Below, in pieces: positions 1 to 19,171 of a stretch of 34,189 nt of DNA. Both the position numbers and the translations under genes were made by a program. How positions within the stretch are numbered: position 1 is the stretch's first letter; each line of letters starts with the position of its first letter. The notes under the pieces were generated by a model, which worked only from the letters and a program-made list of their open reading frames with translations, was not told the origin of the DNA and made no database searches. Location of the stretch: the NCBI GenBank assembly GCA_964527375.1, contig CAZGPL010000001.1:1-34189 (forward strand), given 5' to 3'. The DNA comes from an uncultured Candidatus Saccharibacteria bacterium (GTDB lineage: Bacteria; Patescibacteriota; WWE3; UBA101185; UBA10185).

Positions 1-39
1 TTTTGTTGTAATAACAATACTTACAAGAGGTTTTTCCAT
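1..39 (-). CDS. 5' end of a further GT2-like glycosyltransferase gene, truncated by the window edge
   Basis: ATG at 39 (minus) reads MEKPLVSIVITTK to the edge. A hydrophobic strand 'VSIVITT' right after the start matches the N-termini of the other GT2s here (VSVIIPAY, LSIVIPVY, YSIVIPAY, IVVVIPTY). Only 13 codons are visible. Confidence 0.35.
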   Translation of the reverse strand, partial: MEKPLVSIVITTK

Positions 40-50
40 ATTAAATTTCC

Positions 51-98
51 GGGCTGAACCTAGGGTCCGACCTAGGGCTGAGCCTAGGGCTTAGCCCT
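51..98. repeat. Four tandem 12-nt units of a GC-rich dyad repeat (GGGCTGAACCta / GGGTCCGACCta / GGGCTGAGCCta / GGGCTTAGCCCta)
   Basis: Units start at 51, 63, 75 and 87, an exact 12-nt period. Each core is a 4-1-4 or 5-1-5 palindrome. The array abuts the TAG stop (97-99) of the radical SAM gene and fills most of the gap to the next ATG at 39. Confidence 0.85.
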
Positions 99-1635
99 AC
101 TTCCTCCCCTGACTTTTATCAAAATCCTTCATATGACCAAAAAACTTTTTAGCAGACATAAAATAATACTTAACATCACTCCATTTTCTGATACTAAAAA
201 TTTTTCTTAACAAATACTGGGGTGAAAAAAAGGAAGAGTACAAAGCTTGGGTTAATTCCAACAATCTTTCTTCCGAAAAAGGAATTCTCATAACGGGATT
301 CCTCATATCAAATTTCTCATAATCTTTTGGGCCGACTTTAAACCAATCATTTTTCACACATTCGTCGTAAAGTTTAGCTCCGGGATAAGGAATAACAATT
401 GTAGCCTGCATAGTATCGACATATCCTTTTTTAAATAAATCCTTGGCCTTGTTAATTGTATTCAAAGCCATTTCTTCAGTCTCCCAAGGATAACCCAGCA
501 TTACAGTAATATGAGGTTCCAACCCAGCTTCTTTCGCGGTTTTCAAATAAGGCTCAATCTCCTCAACTTTCAAACCCTTATCTAACTTATCCAATGTTTC
601 CTGATTTGCAGACTCCAAACCATACAAAATAAACCTAAAATTAGCCTTTTTCATCAACTCGCAATCCTCTTTTTTCAAAGCATTAATTCTCATGTTGCAG
701 CTGAAAACAACTTTTTTATTGTAACCAGATTCAATCATCAATTCACAAAACTTTTTTAATCTTGGACCAATATAAAAAGTACCGGCATCATCAAAAATCT
801 CCTTAACACCGTAATTATCAACGACATGTTTAACTTCAGCAAAAAGCCTTTCAGGTGAAAAAACCCTGTAAGAACCTGTTGGATACAATGTAAAATTCCA
901 AACACAAAAGGTACATCTCCCCCACCAACAATCTCTCCCTGAATACATATACGTCCCCGGTCTGTACTTGTAATTCCCATTTTCACAAGCGTAAAGCTTC
1001 CATTTAGTTAAATCTCTATCAATAAAAGGCAAAACATCAAGATTATGTTTTATCTCCATCGGACCTGAACACCAATATTTTTTAACATGTGTAGCATTTT
1101 CACTAAGATTAACTAACATATTCTTTTCCTTTCCCCAAACTCCTCCGGGCATAACTTTTCCCGTAGTTATTGAATCTAATAGGTCGACTAAAACAAAATC
1201 ATAATCACCACCTGTAATCACATAATCAACAGGACATTTTTCCATGGTCTCAATAGGAAATGTGGTAACGTGATCACCAACTATTACCACAATAAGATCG
1301 GGAAACTTGGTCTTAATTTTTTTGACAGTCTCCCAATAAATTTTAATAACCGGAGTTTTAGCTTCTATCATTAACAAATCAGGTTTTTCTTTTCTAAGCT
1401 GAGTAAACCATTCAGATAAAGTCTTTTTTTCAGCAATACCGTCCATCCAAAAAACTTCGTAACCCCTTGATTGAGCTAAAGATGCGGCATACGCAGGAAC
1501 CATCGGGTATATGAATGTAGGAGCATTAAAATACTGAAATTGTCTATTTTGAGAAAGAAGTGGCACTCCTTTATCACTTTTTATAGGTGGGTACCCTATC
1601 GCAACTTTAAATTTTTTTGCTTTTATTTTAGTCAT
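97..1635 (-). CDS. B12-binding-domain radical SAM enzyme (class B-like)
   Basis: 512 aa. The N-terminal part looks like a Rossmann-type B12-binding domain (DLLMIEAKTPVIK...IVVIVGDHVT...VITGGDYD). It is followed by a Cys triad, SGRDCWWGRCTFCVW, and a TIM-barrel-like core (FILYGLESANQETL). ATG at 1635 lies 2 nt after the upstream stop. Confidence 0.8.
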   Translation of the reverse strand: MTKIKAKKFKVAIGYPPIKSDKGVPLLSQNRQFQYFNAPTFIYPMVPAYAASLAQSRGYEVFWMDGIAEKKTLSEWFTQLRKEKPDLLMIEAKTPVIKIYWETVKKIKTKFPDLIVVIVGDHVTTFPIETMEKCPVDYVITGGDYDFVLVDLLDSITTGKVMPGGVWGKEKNMLVNLSENATHVKKYWCSGPMEIKHNLDVLPFIDRDLTKWKLYACENGNYKYRPGTYMYSGRDCWWGRCTFCVWNFTLYPTGSYRVFSPERLFAEVKHVVDNYGVKEIFDDAGTFYIGPRLKKFCELMIESGYNKKVVFSCNMRINALKKEDCELMKKANFRFILYGLESANQETLDKLDKGLKVEEIEPYLKTAKEAGLEPHITVMLGYPWETEEMALNTINKAKDLFKKGYVDTMQATIVIPYPGAKLYDECVKNDWFKVGPKDYEKFDMRNPVMRIPFSEERLLELTQALYSSFFSPQYLLRKIFSIRKWSDVKYYFMSAKKFFGHMKDFDKSQGRK

Positions 1636-1637
1636 TT

Positions 1638-2654
1638 TTAACCTTCAACGTAATTACCCGTCTTTTTATCATATTTTTTTAGCTTTAATTCGGGTTTTTT
1701 CATTATACCAATAAGAAAATTAATTCCGTAATAAATGTGAGTTAAAAAAACTCCTTTCATAAAATCAAAATGGGCTTGCTCCTGATTTTCCTCATTTTTA
1801 GTTATTTTAAAAGAAGAAAAAAATAAAATCCCAAAATAAATTAACAAAAACAAAACGTAATAAAGAGAGAAATAAGGCCAAAAAACACTTAAAATAAATC
1901 CCCCCAGTAAACCAATTGTAAAAAGAGAAGGAGCAAAATACATAGGAATTCTTGAAGTTTGAGGGAAAATTCTTGCAAACTGACCCCTGTGCTGACCGTA
2001 TCTTGAAATCTGCTTTAAATATGGTTTAAAAACTTCTCTTCGGTGATGATAAACCAAAACATCTGGATCGTAAGGAAACTTTCCTCCATGTTTTTCAACA
2101 AGATCAAGACACAACTTGGTATCCTCACCAGGCCAAAACTCAACAGGGAATCCACCAACCTCTTCAAAAGCACTTTTCCTGACAAATAAATTAACAGAAG
2201 GATAATCATCCATTAATCTTTTTTCTTCCGGTTTGTATCTGTATGTAGTTTTCCCACTAACGATAAAAGATTCAAAAAGATACCCTGACATTCTTTCCAA
2301 ATATTCAGCACCCAAAGGTGTTACCGCAGGTCCACCCAGAGCATAAACTTCAGGATCCTCAAATACTTTAGCGGCATTTTTTAACCAACTATATTCAGGA
2401 TAAGAATCATCATCCAAAAAAGCTAAAATATCTCCGGTTGCATGTTCAGCACCCAAATTACGCTTTTTCCCGGGACCCACATTACCTGATTCCAATATTT
2501 TTATTCTTGTTCCACCAAAATCGTATTCTTCTTTTTCATCTGTAATAATAAAAACTTCAAATTCCTGATAATCTAATTTCTTTATCCTTGTAATACTCTC
2601 TTTAACATAATCATTTATTTTTCTAACCGGAATGATTATTGAAAATTTAAGCAT
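1638..2654 (-). CDS. GT2 glycosyltransferase with C-terminal transmembrane anchor
   Basis: 338 aa. FSIIIPVRK strand, AFLDDDSYP (DxD) and GEDTKLC motifs. The C-terminal ~100 aa are hydrophobic (2-3 TM helices). SD-like GGAGA lies about 9 nt upstream of ATG 2654. 8-nt overlap with the upstream gene. Confidence 0.8.
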   Translation of the reverse strand: MLKFSIIIPVRKINDYVKESITRIKKLDYQEFEVFIITDEKEEYDFGGTRIKILESGNVGPGKKRNLGAEHATGDILAFLDDDSYPEYSWLKNAAKVFEDPEVYALGGPAVTPLGAEYLERMSGYLFESFIVSGKTTYRYKPEEKRLMDDYPSVNLFVRKSAFEEVGGFPVEFWPGEDTKLCLDLVEKHGGKFPYDPDVLVYHHRREVFKPYLKQISRYGQHRGQFARIFPQTSRIPMYFAPSLFTIGLLGGFILSVFWPYFSLYYVLFLLIYFGILFFSSFKITKNEENQEQAHFDFMKGVFLTHIYYGINFLIGIMKKPELKLKKYDKKTGNYVEG

Positions 2655-3474
2655 TGATAGTTTCTCCTGTATTTATTTTCATATCTAAATCTTTATCGTA
2701 TATCCATTTTCTTTTTTTACTATCATCGTAAAATTTTAAAATTCTTAAACGATAGAAAACCGCCAAAGTATCTCTTACCATATTTCTTATATTTTTATCG
2801 AATACCATAAAAGGGGTAAAGTTGGTGTTTGATTGATCCCAATTAACGTATATCGGAGATTCATATATTTTTTTAAAGCCCAAATATCTTGAAACGGAAA
2901 GTATTTCTATATCAAAAGCAAATGCTTTTACCATTAATCTGGGAAGCACCGCTTCCAAAACTTCTCTTTTAAAAACCTTCAGGCCTGATTGAGTATCCTT
3001 AACACGAACACCTAATAATGTTTTTACAAAAATATAGTACCCCCAGCTATAAATTTTTCTAATCTTAGGATAGTTTATTTTAGATGCGGGGTGTCTTTTA
3101 CTGCCAACCATTATATCGGCGTCATACCACTCAAGATGCTCCAAGATTAGAGAAATACCGTTAGGATCAATGTCCATACCGGAGTCTATAAAGGCAATGT
3201 AATCCCCTCTAGCCCTAGCCATACCATACCTTATTGCAAAACCTTTACCTTTGTTGTTCTTGTAACCTAAAACCCTTACACTTCCTCGCTTAATAGAACT
3301 AGCATTCTCAAATGTTTTATCTAGAAAATATCCGTCAACAACAACAAGTATCTCGTAACTGAAACGTGTTTCCGACATAACATCATCAATATTTCTAATA
3401 TCTTTAAGAATGGTCTTCTCTTGTTTATAGGCAGGAATTATTACTGATACCATTTTCTTTGGTTTTCTCTTCAC
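2647..3474 (-). CDS. GT2 glycosyltransferase, polyprenol-phosphate-sugar-synthase-like
   Basis: VSVIIPAYKQE, VVVDG, AFIDSGMDIDP, and VKDTQSGLKVFKRE (the DTQxGxK motif of DPM1/Alg5-like enzymes). The longest ORF starts at GTG 3474. ATG 3453 (MVSVIIPAYK) is an equally plausible true start. Confidence 0.8.
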   Translation of the reverse strand: MKRKPKKMVSVIIPAYKQEKTILKDIRNIDDVMSETRFSYEILVVVDGYFLDKTFENASSIKRGSVRVLGYKNNKGKGFAIRYGMARARGDYIAFIDSGMDIDPNGISLILEHLEWYDADIMVGSKRHPASKINYPKIRKIYSWGYYIFVKTLLGVRVKDTQSGLKVFKREVLEAVLPRLMVKAFAFDIEILSVSRYLGFKKIYESPIYVNWDQSNTNFTPFMVFDKNIRNMVRDTLAVFYRLRILKFYDDSKKRKWIYDKDLDMKINTGETINA

Positions 3475-3502
3475 ACCCTTATTTTACTACATTTTTTGAT
3501 GA

Positions 3503-3549
3503 GGGCTGAGCCCTGTGCAGGGCTCAGCCTAGCTCCGGGCTCAGCCCGG
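3503..3549. repeat. GC-rich palindromic element: 26-nt perfect palindrome plus a 15-nt palindrome
   Basis: 3504-3529, GGCTGAGCCCTG-TG-CAGGGCTCAGCC, is self-complementary except for the central dinucleotide. 3535-3549, CCGGGCT-C-AGCCCGG, is a 7-1-7 palindrome. It is built from three GGGCTSAGCC(C) units. Confidence 0.9.
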
Positions 3550-3603
3550 GAAAACCCCGAAGGCATAGGAAAAAACTAAGCTTAAAATGGGAAAATTATA
3601 GGA

Positions 3604-3631
3604 GGGCTCAGCCCTGTGCAGGGCTGAGCCC
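3604..3631. repeat. GC-rich 28-nt perfect palindrome, second copy; possible 3' hairpin of the upstream flippase gene
   Basis: GGGCTCAGCCCTG-TG-CAGGGCTGAGCCC. It starts 8 nt beyond the flippase stop (3639-3641). On the minus strand it is followed by the moderately U-rich TCCTATAATTTTCCCATTTT. It is the same as the 3504-3529 copy except for a G:C to C:G swap in both arms. Confidence 0.9.
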
Positions 3632-3638
3632 GGAAAAC

Positions 3639-4961
3639 TTAGTCCGGCAAAACTTCCAACAACTCGTTAACTTCAGAAAAACTACTAAAATCCTTTTCTC
3701 CTATTCTACTAGGAACATTAAAATAAAAATAAACAGAAAGTGAAATTAAAATAAAAACACTGACTGCAATATTAACATTTATCACATCCCACAAAGTCTC
3801 ATGAAAAATATTCAAAAGTATGTATTGAATTAAAACCCCGGGCAACAGTAATAATCCCACTTTCTTTTTGTCTATAGCCAAGAAAAACATGACTAGAAAA
3901 TTTATCAAAACATAAAACGCTACAAAAACTGAAAACAAAGGTAAATACTTCACGGAATTTTCAAATGCTTTTCCGAAAAATAAATTCGTAATAATTCCAG
4001 GGAAAATCTGATAGCAAAGTACCCCTACAACTAGAATTAAGATCAAAAGCATGAGAAGCCTTTTCAAACTTTTCATAAAACTCTTACCTCCGGCGTAAAG
4101 TGCGGTAATTTTAGGAAACATTACAACGGAAACAGCTCCGGAACCAAACAATAGTATCTTTCCAAGAGTCATGGTTCCTGCATAGTATCCCGCATCAGTT
4201 GAGTCAAAATATTTCTTCACCATTATGAGATCAACATTATTCAAAGCCATCAGAGAAAAATTTACTAAAACAACGGTAGCCCCAAAGGAAAATATTTTTT
4301 TGAAACTATCTGTCACATCTACTTTTTTAAGATTTTTTAAGTTTAAGCCCAAGATTAAAAATCCCGAAGAGAAAACCAAAAAAGAAACAATTGGAGCGGC
4401 GCTATAAACTCCTCTTAAACCAAATCCCATAAAAACAAAAATCGTAGGTATTAAAAACCTAACAAAAAGGCTGAAAATATGAAATACGGAGTATTTTTTA
4501 AACTTCTGAGTTCCCTGAAGATAGGAATTAGGAATAACTATCAAAAAACCCATCCCGACAGATATTCCAAACAAAGTTATTAAAAAACTATCCTGAATAT
4601 TAATATAACCTGAGATAAATTCCCGTAAAGAGAAAATGATAAAAAATAAAACAGACCCTACTAAAAGTGAGAGCTTAAAAGATTTAAAAAATAAAACCAT
4701 CAGTTTATTATCATCTTTTTTTGAATATATTTCGGCATTAATTTTTATCAATGCTGTTCCAAAGACTCCTGCAAAAACCCCTACCATTGAGGATAAAGAT
4801 AGAAGCGCGTTGAAAGTTCCGTAATCTTCAACTGACAACTTTCTTCCCAAAACAAACTGTAATAAATAACTAAAAACGGAACCAACTATGGTTGCGGTTC
4901 CAACCAAAGCAGTCTCCATGATATCTTTTCTCGCTCTCAAGCTTTTCAACTTATTTAGCAT
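3639..4961 (-). CDS. MOP-superfamily (Wzx-like) polysaccharide/oligosaccharide flippase
   Basis: Polytopic, roughly 12-14 hydrophobic segments. The N-terminus, MLNKLKSLRARKD...LLQFVLGRKLSVEDYGTFNAL, is typical of polysaccharide-biosynthesis (Polysacc_synt) proteins. Start is placed at ATG 4961 because GGAGG (4968-4972) sits 6 nt upstream. The longest ORF extends to 4991. Confidence 0.7.
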   Translation of the reverse strand: MLNKLKSLRARKDIMETALVGTATIVGSVFSYLLQFVLGRKLSVEDYGTFNALLSLSSMVGVFAGVFGTALIKINAEIYSKKDDNKLMVLFFKSFKLSLLVGSVLFFIIFSLREFISGYINIQDSFLITLFGISVGMGFLIVIPNSYLQGTQKFKKYSVFHIFSLFVRFLIPTIFVFMGFGLRGVYSAAPIVSFLVFSSGFLILGLNLKNLKKVDVTDSFKKIFSFGATVVLVNFSLMALNNVDLIMVKKYFDSTDAGYYAGTMTLGKILLFGSGAVSVVMFPKITALYAGGKSFMKSLKRLLMLLILILVVGVLCYQIFPGIITNLFFGKAFENSVKYLPLFSVFVAFYVLINFLVMFFLAIDKKKVGLLLLPGVLIQYILLNIFHETLWDVINVNIAVSVFILISLSVYFYFNVPSRIGEKDFSSFSEVNELLEVLPD

Positions 4962-6681
4962 AGACACCCTCCATTTCATTTTTATAAACATTGTATAAAG
5001 TAATACCTCTTAAACTAATTGAATCAAAATAACTTAACTCCATACCGCTTTCACTATTTGAAGTATCGTCCCAAACCGGATAGACGAAGTATTTTGTTCT
5101 GTCAGCAAAAGGTTTGAGTTCTTTAATGACTGCCCAAGCTCCAAATTCCCTAAAAAATGGCCATATCTGCGTATAATATTTCTCTTTAAAACCTACTGTC
5201 ATGGTGGTTTTCAAATCTTTACCAAACTTTTTATAAACTAACTCTTCAAAAGATACCCCACTTGAAAAAGCTGAACCCTGTTCTTCGGAAAGTTTTTTAA
5301 AATAATTAACTATTTCCTCCATTCCGATCAACCACTTGGGCTCTAAAACCTTAACACCCGTCTTCAAACCACCAAACATTGGATTAAAATATGAAAGATA
5401 ATCAGGATGTACATAAATATTGGTATAAAAAGCTGGAATCAGGAACAAAAGTACGGCTATAAATTTATTCCATGCCTTTTTAAGATTAATTCTATCTAAA
5501 ATCCAAATGAAAAATAGAGATGAAATTAATGAAATTACACTAAAAGCCGGCAAAATATATCTATCAAGTTTTTTTGTGGGTAAAGTTAACTGAATAAAAT
5601 AGAAAAAGATGAAAATGAAAAGAAAATCGAAAAAACTTCTCTCGTTGTCTGACATTTTTCTTCTTGTAATTAAAGCTCCGATGAACCCAATCAAAAGGTA
5701 TATGGATGATCTTAGACCCAAAACAACAAAATAAAAGCTAGGACCCGGATCTTCTATCAACTCACCAAAATAAAATTGAATATGGTCGCCCTCTACCCCT
5801 ATATCGGCTATGCCTGCGTACAATGTTTGAATTACTTTAAAGGGAATTACCCACATTGCCGGCCAAAATACAAAAAAGACTGAAATTGAAACCAATAACC
5901 ATGGGAAAAAGACTACACTAAAATCTTTTACCAATCTAAAAAAATGGCTGAAGTTAATTACAGGCCTCTCCTTAAGTAAAAGTTTATATTTCCCGTTACG
6001 GAAAAGGTACATAAACGAGGAAAGTCCGTAAAAAGGTACTAAAAATAAAGCTGAGGTTTTGGTTAGTAAGGCAAAACCTGCAAAAACACCCGAAATAATA
6101 AGCCTTTTTTTATTCTTAATATCAAGAAAATAGTAGTGCATCCAAACAACACTGGCTAGCATGAACGTGGATACCATTCCTTCGAGATGAAACATCCTAG
6201 TCAATCCTAAATAAAAAGGCTCTAAAGAAAGCAGAAGAACAGCTAAAACGGCATATCTTAAATTTAAAGCTTTTTTTAAAGCATAAAATAGAAAGGAAGT
6301 GGTTAAAGATATTGTCAGAACAACTAGAAACTTTTGAACAAAATCTAAATGAAATATCACACCAACGTCATCCCCGGCTGTTAACGAAATCCCTTTATGA
6401 GAAGCCCATAAATTGGTTATTTTCGCCCCCGCGCTTCCTGCCCACATCAGAGTCACTCCCGGATGATATTTTTGCAGAGTCGCCTCGAAATTTCCACTAA
6501 AGACACCACTTCCAAAATCATAAGATCTAGCTTTCCACCTCCAAACATCAGTATTAAAATTATCATGACCTAAGGATGGAATCCTTATCAAAACAGAAAA
6601 CACAAAAACTAATATTTCCAGGCTGAGCCCGGGGCTGAGCCCTAAAATTCCTTTTTTTTCTATTCCTGCATTCTTTTTCAT
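4951..6681 (-). CDS. GT-C-fold membrane glycosyltransferase (ArnT/PMT-like), paralog of 8370-10016
   Basis: 576 aa. About 11-13 TM segments followed by a soluble ~130-aa C-terminal domain. Acidic first-loop motif GHDNFNTDVWRW after TM1. Shares YHPGVTLMW, EPFYLG..R..HLE, LLTKTS and KKLDRYILP motifs with the 8370-10016 product. Codons 11-22 (GILGLSPGLSLE) are encoded by a copy of the GC-rich repeat. Confidence 0.7.
   Translation of the reverse strand: MKKNAGIEKKGILGLSPGLSLEILVFVFSVLIRIPSLGHDNFNTDVWRWKARSYDFGSGVFSGNFEATLQKYHPGVTLMWAGSAGAKITNLWASHKGISLTAGDDVGVIFHLDFVQKFLVVLTISLTTSFLFYALKKALNLRYAVLAVLLLSLEPFYLGLTRMFHLEGMVSTFMLASVVWMHYYFLDIKNKKRLIISGVFAGFALLTKTSALFLVPFYGLSSFMYLFRNGKYKLLLKERPVINFSHFFRLVKDFSVVFFPWLLVSISVFFVFWPAMWVIPFKVIQTLYAGIADIGVEGDHIQFYFGELIEDPGPSFYFVVLGLRSSIYLLIGFIGALITRRKMSDNERSFFDFLFIFIFFYFIQLTLPTKKLDRYILPAFSVISLISSLFFIWILDRINLKKAWNKFIAVLLFLIPAFYTNIYVHPDYLSYFNPMFGGLKTGVKVLEPKWLIGMEEIVNYFKKLSEEQGSAFSSGVSFEELVYKKFGKDLKTTMTVGFKEKYYTQIWPFFREFGAWAVIKELKPFADRTKYFVYPVWDDTSNSESGMELSYFDSISLRGITLYNVYKNEMEGVYAK
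4968..4972 (-). promoter_or_regulatory. Shine-Dalgarno GGAGG for the flippase start at 4961
   Basis: The minus strand reads GGAGGgtgtctATG. The site lies inside the last codons of the upstream GT-C gene, which suggests translational coupling. Confidence 0.6.
6616..6640. repeat. GC-rich repeat copy A (TTCCAGGCTGAGCCCGGGGCTGAGC), intragenic
   Basis: Matches 6693-6717 at 23 of 25 positions. It lies 39 nt downstream (minus sense) of the ATG at 6681, in frame within the GT-C gene. Confidence 0.85.
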
Positions 6682-6692
6682 AATATTTTTAC

Positions 6693-6717
6693 TTCCGGGC
6701 TGAGCCCGGGGCTGAAC
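6693..6717. repeat. GC-rich repeat copy B (TTCCGGGCTGAGCCCGGGGCTGAAC), intergenic
   Basis: Lies in the 40-nt gap between the stop of 6722-8383 and the ATG at 6681. Direct repeat of copy A, offset by 77 nt. Confidence 0.85.
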
Positions 6718-6721
6718 TCAA

Positions 6722-8383
6722 CTATCTTCCGCAACCACAACCCCCCGAAGATTTTTCAGGCGCAGTGTATTTATAAACCTCAATATCATCACCAAGTCTT
6801 AGTTTACTATCGAATTTTACTAATTTCTCAATAAGAGCACTATTTTCTTCTAAAAACGCCCTCTCGTCAAAATTAGGATCGTTAACCACTATCAAAGATT
6901 CAGAAAAATCATCAAATTTTTCTAGACCTTTATTAGATCTAATTCCCATGTGAACAAAAATATCTTTCAAAGCGTTATCATTGTAGATTAATGTTTCCCC
7001 ATAATTGTAATTACTTACCAACCATTGATACAATACATTTTTTGTGTCTCCTCTGTAATACATATAGGAATTTATGAAAGATTTAAAAAATAAAGGAGAT
7101 AAAAATATTCCTAAATACAGATACATTAATAAATTTAGAAACTTTTTGGTTTTTAGATTAACGACGTTATCTTGCAGATATCCCCCAAGAACTTTTAAAA
7201 ACGAGACAACATTAAAACCAAAAATTATTGCCAAATAAGGATAAATAACAAAATAATAATGCGACCTTGTATTCTCAAACCCTGACATATACCATAATAA
7301 AAACAAAGAAACTACATACAGAAAAGTCAAAAATACGTCCTTCTCCTCTATTTTATTTTTAACTATTTTGTAAATAAGATAAAGCAACCCAATAAAAAAT
7401 ACCGGGATTACAACATATCCGGTATCTGCAAGCAATCTCCCGAAACTTTCGGTAAAAAACTTTGCAACATGTTCTGAAAAATTTACGGAACCAACGTTCT
7501 CAAATTGCCAAAAAGCACCCTTACCATACTCCCTACTAGAAAAAGTTTTAAAATCTAACAGAGCGTACGGGGTCCCTACTAAAAATCCCAAAAAGGCAGA
7601 TAAACCTGATAAAAAAAGGGATAATATTCCCTCACGATTCAATAAATTCACCTCTCCCCGAGCTTTTTTTTTATTTCTCAGTTTTTTCTTTTGCCAAAAT
7701 ATTTTTAAAAAATGAGCTGTAGGAACCATCAAAGCAGACAAACCTCCGTTGTATTTAATTGAAGCCGCAAAACCAATAAAAAGTCCGGAAAGAACGTAGT
7801 TTTTCAAATCGTCTTCTTTCAATATCCGAGCCGCAAAATATAATGCCCACGAAAGAAGAAAAGCGGTAGGGATGTCACCAAGAGCATAGTGGGAATGCCA
7901 CATATGGTAGGGCATTATCGCAATAGCAAGAGCCGCCAAAATCCCGGCTTTCCTGCCAAAAAGATTCTTTCCTGCAAGATACACAGGTATTGCAGTTAAA
8001 GCCCCTAGAATGGCAGAAAAACACCTAGTAAGGTAATAGTAGATTAAGTTATCATTCCAAATTAGCGGCATTAATATTTCAAATTTATCTTTTAAACCCG
8101 CTGTTTCAACAAGAGTCCTAAGTCTCGCGAAAATCATATACAAAAAGTAATTAAGGTAGATATAAAGGTGGGGCCAATCAAAATGTCCGGGGTTTGGATC
8201 AAATCTGATTCCAAGGGCAGATCTTATTATAGTAGGCTCATCAGGATGAAAAATGAAAGGAAACCCATGTTTTATTCCAACTAACCTAAGAACCAGACCA
8301 AGAAAAACTATGGAAACCAAACCAACGATGACTGGGAAATCTTCTCGCCACTTTTTATTTTTAGACTTTTTACTCTTTAACAT
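6722..8383 (-). CDS. GT-C-fold membrane glycosyltransferase (PMT_2/ArnT-like, GT39/83-type)
   Basis: 553 aa. Basic N-terminus, TM1, then GFPFIFHPDEPTIIRSA (acidic first-loop motif) and HFDWPHLYIYLNYF. Many TM segments, then a soluble ~100-aa C-terminal domain. Unusual GC-rich tail encoding SSGGCGCGR. ATG at 8383 overlaps the upstream stop by 14 nt. Confidence 0.75.
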   Translation of the reverse strand: MLKSKKSKNKKWREDFPVIVGLVSIVFLGLVLRLVGIKHGFPFIFHPDEPTIIRSALGIRFDPNPGHFDWPHLYIYLNYFLYMIFARLRTLVETAGLKDKFEILMPLIWNDNLIYYYLTRCFSAILGALTAIPVYLAGKNLFGRKAGILAALAIAIMPYHMWHSHYALGDIPTAFLLSWALYFAARILKEDDLKNYVLSGLFIGFAASIKYNGGLSALMVPTAHFLKIFWQKKKLRNKKKARGEVNLLNREGILSLFLSGLSAFLGFLVGTPYALLDFKTFSSREYGKGAFWQFENVGSVNFSEHVAKFFTESFGRLLADTGYVVIPVFFIGLLYLIYKIVKNKIEEKDVFLTFLYVVSLFLLWYMSGFENTRSHYYFVIYPYLAIIFGFNVVSFLKVLGGYLQDNVVNLKTKKFLNLLMYLYLGIFLSPLFFKSFINSYMYYRGDTKNVLYQWLVSNYNYGETLIYNDNALKDIFVHMGIRSNKGLEKFDDFSESLIVVNDPNFDERAFLEENSALIEKLVKFDSKLRLGDDIEVYKYTAPEKSSGGCGCGR

Positions 8384-15218: not shown

Positions 15219-16822
15219 TCTTTATATTCCGAATCAAACCTAATTACTTTAGCAAAAAATTCCGAACCATTCACATTATAGCTAAATTCCTTCATAAGTT
15301 GCAGGTATTTTCTTTTTTCCAGATTTATAGAAATATTTGTGTTATGTTCATTAGAAATAATTAGATAATCGATATCTTTACTTTTTAGCTTTTTAAATTC
15401 AAGAAATTCCTTTTTGTCAAAGAACATATAGGTACCTGTATTGGAAACTTTACTTTCGGAAACGTTTAAGTACCAATCAGGGATAGCACTTGTATCATTG
15501 TAGGCAATTTTCCCTTCCAGATTTTTAGAAGAATACTCGGAAGCTTCTTTTATTGATCTAAAGATACTTCTGTGCATATTTATAGTGTAGGAACACCAAA
15601 TAATTGTCGACAGGACTGTAAAAAATAAAAATAATCGGGTTTTTTTAAAAAATAAAAAGATTATTGAAATAATCTGAGCTAAAACAATTATGGCTAGCAT
15701 CTTATAACCAAGAATGAGGAATTGCAGTTTAAGAACATACTGACTGAAAATATAAAAAAGGAGAAGAATAAAATTTATGGCCAGGAAAATAAGACTTCTA
15801 TTTGCATTTTTTTCGGTTTTTAATAGAAACTTCTCCAAACAAATAGTTAGAATAACAATGAAAAAAGGTATCAATGGAACGAAAAGTCGCGGTATGGCAG
15901 CAGGCCAGAGTAGTATTAAAATGAGCTCTAGGACGATAAAAGCCGTTATACCAACATTTTCAGCTAGAAAACCATGAGCAATTTTCAAATTCTTAAAAAT
16001 AAAGTAGAAAGCCGAAGTAAATCCTAAAATATAGAGAATAGAGACGAAATAAGACCAAACCATTTTAAAATCGTAAACTCTTCGCTCAGGTTCTTCAAAA
16101 TATTTTGACTCCAAAGGATTTCGATATACCAACCAAGGACTTATCACAAGTAACGTCGTTAATCCTAAGATTGCTGCCTTAGGCATTTTCCTCCAAATTT
16201 TTTTTATTAAATCCTTAATTTTTATTTTCCCACTAAATATATTCTCCTTATGGAAAATTACCGCAACCAATCCTGAAAATAATAGTAAATAACCTTCAAA
16301 TCTGGTTAATATAGCTAAACCGCAAATCAAACCCAGAAGAGCTATTTTAGATAAATTAAGCTTATCCCATTTTGAAATTAAATAGAAAAATAGAAGAACA
16401 AAAAACGAAAAAGGAACGTCCGCCATTATTCTTATTGACCAATAAAGGTAAACAGGGTTAAAAATAAAAAATACCAATGATAAAAACTTGTACCTTTGAT
16501 CCTTAATATAAATTTTGGAGAATTTTTCAAAGACGTAAAAAGAAAGAAATGAAAAAACCAACATCACTATTCTACCCCATAAGACAGCATCAACACCATC
16601 GGGTCTGGTTGCTGTGAAAATGGAGAATAATGGCGATCTCTTTTCATCTTTAGGATAAGTCCCCTGTCTGATATATTCCGAAGCCCTGAGTATTCTATAA
16701 GAATCTCCCCACTCAGCCACATTAATGTTAAAAAGAGCAACGTGCAATATCAAAAATATTGCATAAGCATAAAAATGAACAGGAATTTTCCTAAAGAAGG
16801 TAATTTTGTTTCGCAAAATCAT
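15215..16822 (-). CDS. GT-C-fold membrane glycosyltransferase (PMT_2/ArnT-like)
   Basis: About 535 aa. TM1, then NVAEWGDSYRILRASEYIRQGTYP (acidic loop), NPVYLYWSIRIMADVPF, GLAILTRFEGYLLL. Polytopic with a C-terminal soluble ~120 aa. The longest ORF starts at TTG 16834. ATG 16822 is preferred. Either start overlaps the 3' end of the upstream GT4 gene. Confidence 0.65.
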   Translation of the reverse strand: MILRNKITFFRKIPVHFYAYAIFLILHVALFNINVAEWGDSYRILRASEYIRQGTYPKDEKRSPLFSIFTATRPDGVDAVLWGRIVMLVFSFLSFYVFEKFSKIYIKDQRYKFLSLVFFIFNPVYLYWSIRIMADVPFSFFVLLFFYLISKWDKLNLSKIALLGLICGLAILTRFEGYLLLFSGLVAVIFHKENIFSGKIKIKDLIKKIWRKMPKAAILGLTTLLVISPWLVYRNPLESKYFEEPERRVYDFKMVWSYFVSILYILGFTSAFYFIFKNLKIAHGFLAENVGITAFIVLELILILLWPAAIPRLFVPLIPFFIVILTICLEKFLLKTEKNANRSLIFLAINFILLLFYIFSQYVLKLQFLILGYKMLAIIVLAQIISIIFLFFKKTRLFLFFTVLSTIIWCSYTINMHRSIFRSIKEASEYSSKNLEGKIAYNDTSAIPDWYLNVSESKVSNTGTYMFFDKKEFLEFKKLKSKDIDYLIISNEHNTNISINLEKRKYLQLMKEFSYNVNGSEFFAKVIRFDSEYKE

Positions 16823-17990
16823 AAACTTTTTCAATTTCTTTAATTCTGGAATCCCATGAATACATCAATGCCACTTTATCAGAATCCACCGGAACTGGGC
16901 CTTTTTCTACCAATGTATATATAAATCTTGCAATATTATCAGGTTCTAAATTGTCTAAATAAAACAAACCTTCAACATCTTCAGAAAGCTTAAAACCTGA
17001 AACCAGGCATGGGGTACCTGCACAGAGCCCCTGCATAACAACCTTAGGCAAACCCTCCCAAGAAGAGGGGAGAACAAAAATATCAGATATTTGATATGCA
17101 ATGGGGGTTTCAGGATATGGAGTATAACCTACATTAACTACTCTACTCTCTAAGCCGCTCATTCTTATTGTTTCATTAATTTTGCCCATATAAGTGGGGT
17201 CACCTGATCCCACTAAAAAGAGTTTGTATTCCTTAGGAAGATACTTCAGAGCCTCTACCAAAAGATGGACGTTTTTTCTTTCTGACATAACACCGTGATT
17301 TAGTATTATCCTATCATCTATGTCAAAACCAATGTCTCTTCTGGATTTCTCCCACTCCTCACTTGATATTTTCTTAAACAAGTCGGGATTAACACCGGAT
17401 TCAACAAAAAAACATCTCCTATCGTCAGCACCGTAATATTCAACTGCTTTTTTCAAATTTCCCTCACTTACAAAGATACACGCGGCGGCTGATTTAACTG
17501 CGTACCTATCAGAAAAAATCGAAAGGGGCCAAATTAAATATCTTGCTAATGGAGATATTGGTTTATCTTGTTTTTCCATCTGAACCCATCTATCTTTTGC
17601 TACATTATGAAAATGTACCACTAAAGGTACTTTTAATTCTTTAGCCCAGGGGAAATATTTCTGTAGAATTGCCCTATAAAAATAAATCCATATTCCAAAG
17701 TGCCCGTGAGAATGAACAACATCAGGCTTGTTTTTTCTTCTCCATAAAAGATATTTGAAAAAAAGAACTACCGAACTCGTGAAAAATATCGTTCCGGCAA
17801 GAGGTTCTCTCATTATTGGATTTACCTTAATATTTCCAGGACGTTCTATTTTACCCGCATTGGGCCACCTCCCGCAAAATATCTCTACCTCATGTCCTGC
17901 TTGAACTTGGCTAACAGTAAGCTCATATGGATGTGGTGCCAACCCCTGCCAGGGAGGTGGCCAATCATATATTATCCTCAGTATTTTCAC
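16791..17990 (-). CDS. GT4 (GT-B fold) glycosyltransferase
   Basis: 399 aa. The N-terminal half is Glyco_trans_4-like (HSHGHFG). The C-terminal half has VGSGDP...LPSSWEGLPKVVMQGLCAGTPCLVS. GTG start at 17990 is supported by GGAGG 7 nt upstream and a GTGA overlap with the upstream stop. Confidence 0.8.
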   Translation of the reverse strand: MKILRIIYDWPPPWQGLAPHPYELTVSQVQAGHEVEIFCGRWPNAGKIERPGNIKVNPIMREPLAGTIFFTSSVVLFFKYLLWRRKNKPDVVHSHGHFGIWIYFYRAILQKYFPWAKELKVPLVVHFHNVAKDRWVQMEKQDKPISPLARYLIWPLSIFSDRYAVKSAAACIFVSEGNLKKAVEYYGADDRRCFFVESGVNPDLFKKISSEEWEKSRRDIGFDIDDRIILNHGVMSERKNVHLLVEALKYLPKEYKLFLVGSGDPTYMGKINETIRMSGLESRVVNVGYTPYPETPIAYQISDIFVLPSSWEGLPKVVMQGLCAGTPCLVSGFKLSEDVEGLFYLDNLEPDNIARFIYTLVEKGPVPVDSDKVALMYSWDSRIKEIEKVYDFAKQNYLL

Positions 17991-19171
17991 TTAAGTACCT
18001 CCATAAAAACTTTTTCGTATCTATCTATCATTTTACCAATTGTAAATTCTTTTTCAGCCTTTTCTTTGGAATTATCCCCTAGTTTAAACCTTAGTTCTCT
18101 ATCGTCTATCAATTGTATCATCTTCTCACTAAAGTTCTCTTTCTCCCCGGCGTTGACTAAAAACCCGGTGATACCGTCATCTACAGCATCGGAGACACCA
18201 CCGTAGTCAAAAGCTATAGTGGGAATACCTGCAAACATTGACTCCACCAAAACCATAGGAAATCCCTCCACTCTTTGGGTTGGAAAAACAAAAATATCAG
18301 GTTGGATTTTTTTTATAAATTCATAATGAGGCATACGACCGTGAAAAATCACCTTCTCTTGAATATTTAGCTTTCCCACCTTATTTTTAGCTTCTTCTAA
18401 ACAAGGACCTTCCCCTACTACATGAAAAATAATATCTCTATTGATATTTTTCACCATGTCCAAAATTGTTAAGATACCTTTTGATTTCTCCACCCTACCT
18501 ATAAAATAGATATTTACTATGCCCCCAACGTTTCTTTTTTCTTTTTCACTTTTAAATAAATTAGGATCAATTCCATTATGAATCACCTCAACTTTATCAG
18601 GGCTTACGAAAGTTTCGGAAATGAGAGATTTTTTCACGAATTCTGAAACAGCCACCACTTTATCTGAGTGTAAGACAAATCTCCTCTGTCTTCCAAAATA
18701 TTGTCTAAAAAAATATTGCGTATTTCTTATGAGCCAGTAAATATCTTTGAAATTGGATATATTTTTTAAAAAGGTTATGTACTCTCCGGAAGTTGTTCCA
18801 TGAGAAATAGAAACAGCTTTAATTCCTAATTTAAATTTATTCTCGATAATACTTTCCGCGGAGGCGCTTTGTCCTAAAACCAAATCAAAATTTTCTTTTT
18901 CGTGGATATTTGAGAAAACTTCCAAAGACTTTCTTGTCCAACTATCTTTATCAAAACTGGCAAAAATATATTTTTTATACTCTGCATCAACAAAAACGTA
19001 TTTAACACCATTTTGCTCGAAAGTTTCCATTTCTAACTCCCTTTTCGGAGAAAAAATTGTTATCTGGTGACCTCTTTTTGCAAGACCTTCACATAAAGCT
19101 AAATTCTGTGTCTCCAAACCTCCGTGGTGTTTGTGTAAAGTGGTCGATTTTGTAAATACAGCAATTTTCAT
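17987..19171 (-). CDS. GT4 (GT-B fold) glycosyltransferase
   Basis: 394 aa. MKIAVFT...HHGGLETQNLALCEGLAKRGHQITIF at the N-terminus. Canonical EX7E motif (RVEGFPMVLVESMFAGIPTIA) and GITGFLV. Confidence 0.85.
   Translation of the reverse strand: MKIAVFTKSTTLHKHHGGLETQNLALCEGLAKRGHQITIFSPKRELEMETFEQNGVKYVFVDAEYKKYIFASFDKDSWTRKSLEVFSNIHEKENFDLVLGQSASAESIIENKFKLGIKAVSISHGTTSGEYITFLKNISNFKDIYWLIRNTQYFFRQYFGRQRRFVLHSDKVVAVSEFVKKSLISETFVSPDKVEVIHNGIDPNLFKSEKEKRNVGGIVNIYFIGRVEKSKGILTILDMVKNINRDIIFHVVGEGPCLEEAKNKVGKLNIQEKVIFHGRMPHYEFIKKIQPDIFVFPTQRVEGFPMVLVESMFAGIPTIAFDYGGVSDAVDDGITGFLVNAGEKENFSEKMIQLIDDRELRFKLGDNSKEKAEKEFTIGKMIDRYEKVFMEVLK
17998..18002 (-). promoter_or_regulatory. Shine-Dalgarno GGAGG for the GTG start at 17990
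   Basis: The minus strand reads GGAGGtacttaaGTG, embedded in the last codons (MEVLK) of the upstream GT4. Confidence 0.6.

Follow-up and report, generated by a model that had tools for sequence, protein, structure and literature searches.

The locus considered here raises a simple question. Four short dyads stand at an exact 12-nt period at positions 51 to 98, in the space between two genes, and the initial annotation read them as phased sites selected for self-complementarity, acting either as a hairpin or as a symmetric protein-binding site. Are they a device of this one junction, or part of something wider? We conclude, with a probability of roughly 0.85, that the array is a REP-type (BIME-like) cluster of a dispersed repeat family, most likely spread by the RAYT encoded on contig C43 of the same assembly. 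It is an ordinary member of its repeat family, and the family is a further REP/RAYT case. The window, by which we mean the whole 34,189-nucleotide stretch of DNA that was analyzed (G000:C1:1-34189), comes from a source assembly (G000) of 647,574 nt in 92 contigs with 34.5% GC.

The array and its two neighboring genes

The array lies between two genes of the minus strand. The radical SAM gene (97 to 1635, minus strand; 512 amino acids, assigned from its ORF and from matches to the Radical_SAM and B12-binding domains) ends with its stop codon at 97 to 99. The next gene (1 to 39, minus strand), which begins MEKPLVSIVITTK... and is truncated by the contig end, has its ATG at 37 to 39. The placement of the array between this stop and this ATG in the initial annotation is confirmed. 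In G005 and G011, the orthologs of the truncated gene extend into a family-2-type glycosyltransferase.

Units of the family occur as types A (GGGCT-S-AGCCC), B (GGGCC-S-GGCCC), and C (GGACT-S-AGTCC), and the differences among these types are compensated pairs. On the forward strand, the array reads GGGCTGAACCTA, GGGTCCGACCTA, GGGCTGAGCCTA, and GGGCTTAGCCCT (units 1 to 4), and Tandem Repeats Finder describes it as a repeat of period 12 with 3.8 copies, a score of 55, and the consensus GGGCTGAGCCTA. On the sense strand, which is the minus strand, the units are joined by CTAG linkers and read GGGCTAAGCCC TAGGCTCAGCCC TAGGTCGGACCC TAGGTTCAGCCC, in the order A-A-B'-A, as in a REP/BIME-like cluster. 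Four palindromic units at an exact 12-nt period had been claimed. The period stands, and so do the dyads of unit 2 (GGTC-C-GACC), unit 3 (GGCT-G-AGCC), and unit 4 (GGGCT-T-AGCCC); unit 1 (GGCT-G-AACC on the forward strand) has a single broken pair.

All four units are assigned to the minus strand. Unit 4 (87 to 97), the first on the sense strand, is an A-type unit with center A (GGGCTAAGCCC) that borders on, and overlaps with, the TAG stop codon at the end of the radical SAM gene. Unit 3 (75 to 85) is likewise A-type, with the sense-strand sequence AGGCTCAGCCC. Unit 2 (63 to 73) reads AGGTCGGACCC in the sense direction and is classed as B', a variant with a relationship to the B-type GGGCCSGGCCC; its counterpart in G008 and at G000:C7 is AGGTCGGGCCC. 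Unit 1 (51 to 61) reads AGGTTCAGCCC in the sense direction and is a decayed unit of the A type; if it pairs with unit 2, the C-to-T change that it carries lies opposite the G-to-A change of unit 2.

Folding predicts a single 10- to 12-bp hairpin with a CTA loop for the units at 75 to 85 and 87 to 97, and in the predicted folds of the array, both as RNA and as DNA, unit pairs with unit. Structure prediction of the array, which the initial annotation had proposed as a check, yields the unit-on-unit pairing and no stability beyond that of shuffled sequences, since the folding energies are not clearly better than those of shuffles (z of -0.8 to -1.9 for RNA and DNA). An Rfam scan of window positions 1 to 7000 gave no match at 51 to 98 and, elsewhere, a chance-level snoR9 match only (E of 0.31). 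A scan for terminators and promoters found none at 51 to 98; a T-tail is absent, and the sense strand goes on with GGAAATTTAAT. The array is less than 100 nt from the contig end. Its counterpart in G008 is internal to a contig (G008:C8), which argues against an assembly artifact.

A repeat family dispersed through the genome

The repeats of the window belong to the GGGCTNAGCCC family. In the window there are 10 copies of the family core GGCTNAGCC, with 0.2 expected (none of 100 shuffles reached 10), and in the assembly there are 70, where about 1.8 would be expected from base composition. These copies form about 30 clusters of one to six units, mainly intergenic and typically at a distance of 0 to 30 nt from a stop or start codon. 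A crude ORF call covers 90% of the genome, leaving about 10% as noncoding, and 49 of the 70 units lie outside these ORFs, with most of the others at ORF ends. Phased sites specific to one intergenic space, as envisaged in the initial annotation, are contradicted by the roughly 70 core copies found genome-wide, as well as by the orthologous loci described below.

The family is built from an 11-nt near-palindrome, GGGCT-S-AGCCC, whose extended consensus is C[C/A]G-GGCT-S-AGCC-C[G/T]G. A GT[AG]G foot is not a feature of the family: GTAG was found in 3 of 67 flanks, and the flanks are instead CCG or CAG on the one side and CGG or CTG on the other. Adjacent units are spaced at 17 nt in 21 of 32 pairs, and the linkers fall into three classes. 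One has the 17-nt spacing with the loop CTGNNCAG and complementary unit centers in 10 of 11 pairs, which gives an uninterrupted hairpin of 11 to 13 bp (G000). Another has the same spacing with the spacer CGGAGCTA or TAGCTCCG and identical centers in 8 of 9 pairs, that is, direct repeats. The remaining class has a 12-nt spacing with a CTA or CGG linker and includes the array at 51 to 98. Two units together give a hairpin of 28 nt, as in GGGCTGAGCCC-TGTGCA-GGGCTCAGCCC.

The window holds further clusters of the same kind. The largest intergenic gap of the region (3475 to 3638) contains two A-type hairpin clusters around an AT-rich core. At 3503 to 3547, the hairpin GGGCTGAGCCC-TGTGCA-GGGCTCAGCC is followed by one more unit with the TAGCTCCG spacer, and at 3604 to 3631 there is a perfect REP hairpin, GGGCTCAGCCC-TGTGCA-GGGCTGAGCCC. 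At the orthologous position, G002 has a single A-type pair and G008 has C-type units; in G011 and G005, the gap contains no repeats. Between 6616 and 6720, units flank the annotated ATG (6681) of the gene at 4951 to 6681. Two units with 12-nt spacing (6620 to 6642) lie in the start region of this gene, and an intact unit is accompanied by a degenerate one (GGGCTGAACTC) at 6697 to 6719, just past the stop of the gene at 6722 to 8383. The units at 6620 to 6642 are inside the longest ORF, so they are translated unless the gene in fact starts further downstream.

The order A-A-B recurs at unrelated loci (G000:C51, G000:C7, and G008:C57), which suggests that composite blocks, and not just single units, have been copied. 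Contigs of the source assembly break within units at the ends of C2, C56, and C74 and at the start of C43, and an N gap in C24, at about 1150, likewise falls within a unit, as would be expected of a repeat family in a short-read assembly. Because of such breaks, the true copy number is probably above the count.

The distribution of the family among related genomes is patchy. Eight of the 14 species of the genus have 12 to 46 copies of GGGCTSAGCCC and the other six have none, and 27 genomes of other genera of the same family, order, and class have zero or one. The C-type sequence GGACTSAGTCC occurs 20 times in G008 and in none of the 13 other genomes of the genus. Among the matches listed in a scan of a genome collection for pairs of units, most are single chance matches in high-GC genomes, and several are in Patescibacteria assemblies.

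The orthologous site in related species

Among the 10 species compared, the array 3' of the radical SAM gene is present in G000 and G008 only. The G008 array (L011, G008:C8, about 1310 to 1362) reads GGGCTGAGCCC TAGGCTCAGCCC TAGGTCGGGCCC TAGGCTCAGCCC on the sense strand, and the TGA stop of its radical SAM gene lies within the first unit, so that the repeat supplies the stop codon. The array has no counterpart at 8 of the 9 orthologous loci (those of G002, G005, G006, G011, G003, G004, G007, and G012), where the order of radical SAM gene and glycosyltransferase gene is retained or the neighbor differs. G002, G005, G006, and G011 are repeat-bearing species, yet the site is empty in them. The initial annotation had itself named the comparison of orthologous intergenic regions as a check and a lack of the array there, with gene order or spacing unaffected, as evidence against its reading; on those terms, the eight species without an array largely refute a function specific to this locus.

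At the empty sites, the radical SAM gene ends with ...CAGAAAAGGAGTGGTTAA, the next start is a few bases away, and a ribosome-binding sequence lies within the gene end. In G000 and G008, the insertion accompanies an altered gene end (CAGGGGAGGAA...), and the next ATG is without a nearby Shine-Dalgarno sequence. The last codons of the radical SAM gene encode QGRK* in the window and QKRSG* at the empty-site orthologs. The RBS-like sequence GGGGAGGAAG at the end of this gene (100 to 109, minus strand), which reads AAAAGGAG at the empty sites, is separated by the array from the next ATG by about 60 nt. The array may affect the coupling of the two genes, the stability of their mRNA, or the translation of both.

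The radical SAM gene nearest to that of G000 is the gene of G011, with 89% nucleotide identity versus 81% for G008. G011 is nevertheless without the array, which G000 and G008 share. The sharing could reflect one origin followed by transfer of a short recombination patch, repeated loss, or parallel site-specific insertion; a recombination test along the radical SAM gene found no clear G008-like patch beyond the last 15 nt or so. A separate peculiarity of G011 (L018, G011:C55) is a run of N at about 120 to 220 downstream of the radical SAM stop, which lies inside the glycosyltransferase gene and has the same 60 or so bases on either side. Such a pattern suggests that the G011 assembly has a local duplication here or was joined during scaffolding.

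Compensated changes, pairing, and decay

Unit 2 had been presented as a case of double compensatory substitution. Two positions of its left arm do differ from GGCT/AGCC together with their partners, but the difference did not arise as one event; it is stepwise and belongs in part to the family. The family data give the steps as the B-type GGCC-S-GGCC, then the T variant TAGGTCGGGCCC, and then a G-to-A change found in this window only. Among the internal units of the 12-nt arrays of the genus, about 20 are A-type (CT-S-AG) and at least 8, in G008, G011, and G000, are B-type (CC-S-GG). The T variant TCGGG (TAGGTCGGGCCC), with a T.G pair, occurs in the G008 ortholog and at G000:C7, and TCGGA, with a T:A pair, is seen in this window only. 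Single uncompensated variants, for example, CCGAG and CCGGGT, occur in these arrays as well.

The wider proposal of selection on self-complementarity rather than on primary sequence survives in an amended form. The compensated types A, B, and C and the hairpins found in relatives speak for it, but the complementarity is mainly between adjacent units and not within them. Variants that match only between neighbors are found in G006 (GGGTTCAGCCC-GGGAC-GGGCTGAACCC), in G002 (GGGCCGTGCCC-GGAGCC-GGGCACGGCCC, with two compensated pairs), in G011 (GGGCTCGGCCC-TGTCCG-GGGCCGAGCCC), and in G010, where a one-base insertion is compensated in both arms. As several variants are complementary only between neighbors, pairing between neighboring units is a better-supported model than intra-unit dyads. 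We considered compensation within units as the sole signal and rejected it, since the degenerate units of G000 are mostly uncompensated and several variants match only between neighbors.

Most degenerate units of G000 have lost a pair through a single GC-to-AT change with no compensating change, which looks like decay rather than maintenance. The arrays of G000 and G008 show three differences in 47 nt, all of them GC-to-AT. Two of the three (position 8 of unit 3 and position 4 of unit 4, counted on the sense strand) are partners if those units pair, a placement with a chance probability that we put roughly at 0.05 and that is suggestive only. The third breaks the center pair of the first hairpin.

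A single-copy transposase gene flanked by the repeats

A search with the Pfam model Y1_Tnp found a Y1/HUH transposase gene in a single copy in G000 (G000:C43:16-582, 188 amino acids), the product of which scores 41.2 bits (cut-off, 23). Among NCBIfam models, REP_Tyr_transpos (NF047646) fits the protein best, at 45.8 bits; this is below the cut-off of 80, which leaves the protein outside the curated REP_Tyr_transpos equivalog, and it belongs to a divergent clade. H75-x-H77 and Y135 are invariant in 25 homologs, and from knowledge of Y1 transposases we take them to be the putative HUH motif and catalytic tyrosine, respectively. Searches against PDB sequences gave marginal matches only, with E values of 0.02 to 0.46 for single-sequence and profile searches (4ER8 at 0.46, by profile), so a comparison of folds was needed to place the RAYT. 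The top Foldseek match in the PDB of the AlphaFold model (pLDDT of 91) is 4ER8_A, the E. coli REP-associated tyrosine transposase with a bound REP hairpin (TM of 0.62/0.70, rmsd of 3.2 Å), ahead of the TnpA proteins of IS608 and ISDra2.

The surroundings of the gene tie it to the repeats. Contig C43 starts with ...AGCCC, the end of a unit, and six units lie directly 3' of the gene. Close homologs are common in Patescibacteria and Saccharibacteria metagenome bins, some of them named RayT by JGI. Within the genus, homologs with 62 to 74% identity are found in repeat-bearing genomes only (two in G008 and one each in G011 and G006), and all five RAYT genes of the genus have units within about 150 nt. 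The two G008 paralogs (L009, G008:C25:717-4241, and L006, G008:C30:10485-13123) are 66% and 74% identical to the G000 protein. The first G008 RAYT gene is adjoined by A-type units, and the second is bracketed on both sides by GGACT-S-AGTCC hairpins.

RAYT genes are present in 4 of the 8 repeat-bearing assemblies and in none of the 6 repeat-free ones. The repeat-bearing assemblies G002, G005, G009, and G010, which are 76 to 92% complete, yielded no RAYT, even by profile search; repeat-flanked genes assemble poorly. G012 and G013 encode canonical IS200-type TnpA proteins, with 96 to 117 bits to Y1_Tnp, and have no units near these genes.

Origin of the array and alternative explanations

We propose that neighboring 11-nt units pair on single-stranded DNA or RNA, where they would form hairpins of 11 to 13 bp. 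By analogy with E. coli TnpA-REP, the RAYT would recognize the folded hairpin on single-stranded DNA and then cut and rejoin, and we infer that it catalyzes the spread of the repeats. A composite four-unit block (A-A-B'-A) would have been placed at the end of the radical SAM gene, where its arrival may have rewritten the last codons and shifted the gene-end ribosome-binding sequence to about 60 nt from the next start. The resident block would now drift by GC-to-AT changes. Selection for a foldable stem would act when repeats are copied, and such selection could account for compensated differences between families together with the uncompensated decay of resident copies. There is about an even chance that a more specific reading also holds. 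In this reading, the REP/RAYT system of the genus is active and its RAYT belongs to a protein clade not yet described; the half-site is itself a dyad that tiles at 12 nt and re-pairs in several registers; paralogs and repeat families have diverged together through compensated stems (A, B, and C); and composite blocks are placed at or in gene ends, and in frame in essential genes such as that for valyl-tRNA synthetase, rewriting C termini and stops in a genome that has hardly any DNA to spare.

A locus-specific regulatory array would consist of four phased dyads for a symmetric DNA-binding protein, or of an RNA structure that controls the junction of the radical SAM and glycosyltransferase genes. 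The exact 12-nt phasing and the dyad form of the units would be natural in such an array, as would its conservation unit for unit between G000 and G008, with three changes in 47 nt. We give this explanation hardly any credence, given that some 70 units stand genome-wide at unrelated genes, that eight of the nine orthologous junctions are without the array, and that it has no Rfam match and no terminator-like tail. For E. coli REP/BIME elements, roles in mRNA stabilization, in decoupling, and in the binding of nucleoid proteins or gyrase have been proposed. The units studied here might similarly be structural elements that the host maintains (stabilizers of mRNA 3' ends, decouplers of genes, or sites for nucleoid proteins or gyrase) and that spread independently of the RAYT. 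This would be compatible with the REP-type reading and would suit the position of clusters close after stops and before starts, the complementarity retained through compensated changes, and the four repeat-bearing assemblies without a detectable RAYT. It is unlikely to be the explanation, however, as the elements are patchy among close species and missing from many orthologous sites, every RAYT gene is flanked by repeats with its own family per paralog, many units show uncompensated decay, and T-tails are absent.

It is also very unlikely that the units are the ends or MITEs of another mobile element, with a non-Y1 nuclease or transposase, and that the RAYT-like gene is merely a preferred landing place. 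REP clusters do attract further insertions, but five of five RAYT genes are flanked, and the second repeat family is limited to the one genome with a second RAYT and brackets that gene on both sides. No other gene was found to recur beside the G000 clusters on crude inspection. The REP-type cluster, mobilized by its RAYT, is for these reasons the explanation that we prefer.

Relation to known repeat systems

The closest known systems are the REP/BIME elements and TnpA-REP (RAYT) proteins of E. coli, Pseudomonas, and Stenotrophomonas, described as REPtrons (PMC6006769) and as REPIN-RAYT systems (Bertels & Rainey, PMC3116915). In a REPtron, each repeat family goes with one transposase gene, and repeats of that family flank the gene (Ton-Hoang/Quentin et al., PMC6006769). 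The testable features of a REPtron are all present here, bar the GT[AG]G foot and membership in the curated E. coli-type equivalog, and the co-occurrence of repeat and RAYT extends to only four of the eight repeat-bearing assemblies. The foot is common and not universal, as REPs of classes 2.6 and 3 are also without it (Quentin et al., PMC6006769).

As in REP/RAYT systems, the repeats are short GC-rich hairpin palindromes with many extragenic copies, gathered in mosaic clusters of several unit types; the Y1/HUH gene is single copy and flanked by its own repeats, with one family per paralog; the distribution is patchy and lineage specific; and the best structural match of the protein is 4ER8. 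In contrast to those systems, the host is one of the ultra-small Patescibacteria, with a genome of about 0.7 Mb and 34% GC; the half-site is itself a near-palindrome, so that 12-nt head-to-tail arrays are possible; and some units lie in frame within essential genes. The absence of a GT[AG]G foot and the score of the protein below the NCBIfam REP_Tyr_transpos cut-off set the system apart from typical REP/RAYT cases as well.

Two other kinds of element bear a partial resemblance. TnpA proteins of the IS200/IS605 family recognize folded single-stranded hairpins, and those of IS608 and ISDra2, which have subterminal hairpins, share the HUH/Y1 fold with the RAYT described here. However, the repeats of the present family are dispersed without the gene, which is single copy, and in G012 and G013 no such repeats are found near the canonical IS200-type TnpA genes. 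Rickettsia palindromic elements (RPE) resemble the present repeats in being palindromic and in having in-frame copies within genes for proteins, likewise in a reduced genome. They are reportedly 100 to 150 bp long, and we know of no transposase associated with them, whereas the units here are of 11 nt and have an associated RAYT.

Work on REP/RAYT systems has, to our knowledge, been almost confined to Proteobacteria. In the literature searched, neither REP nor RAYT was connected in any paper with Patescibacteria or the candidate phyla radiation, and in no paper did the motif appear together with Patescibacteria. What appeared to be a regulatory curiosity is a recognizable mobile or domesticated repeat system. 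Streamlined genomes of 0.7 Mb with dozens of GC-rich hairpins offer a natural test of whether such elements are parasites or serve their host. Specificity could be tested cleanly with the two RAYT paralogs of G008, as each has its own compensated stem variant. In practice, assemblies of genomes like these are interrupted at the repeats, and gene prediction can be misled by them where genes end.

Units within genes

Among the hairpins are some that provide stop codons, some that keep coupled genes apart, and some that lie within essential proteins. The 3' end of the RAYT frame itself crosses a repeat unit (L003/L005, G000:C43, 520 to 582), where it encodes ..ISGLSPAK.., and GLSP is conserved in close homologs. 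Outside the window, two in-frame units occur in the valyl-tRNA synthetase gene (G000:C5:17769-17789, in a 747-amino-acid ORF at 16381 to 18621) and are translated as NFRAEPGAQPGNL. The same loop of this protein is encoded with three units in G008 and with a variant hairpin that has two compensated pairs in G002; the sequence is decayed in G011 and G005, and the repeat-free G012 has no repeat there. Two further in-frame units, translated as RAQPGEGSARDGLSPE, lie in an ORF for a UvrD/AddA-like helicase (G000:C7:19623-19647).
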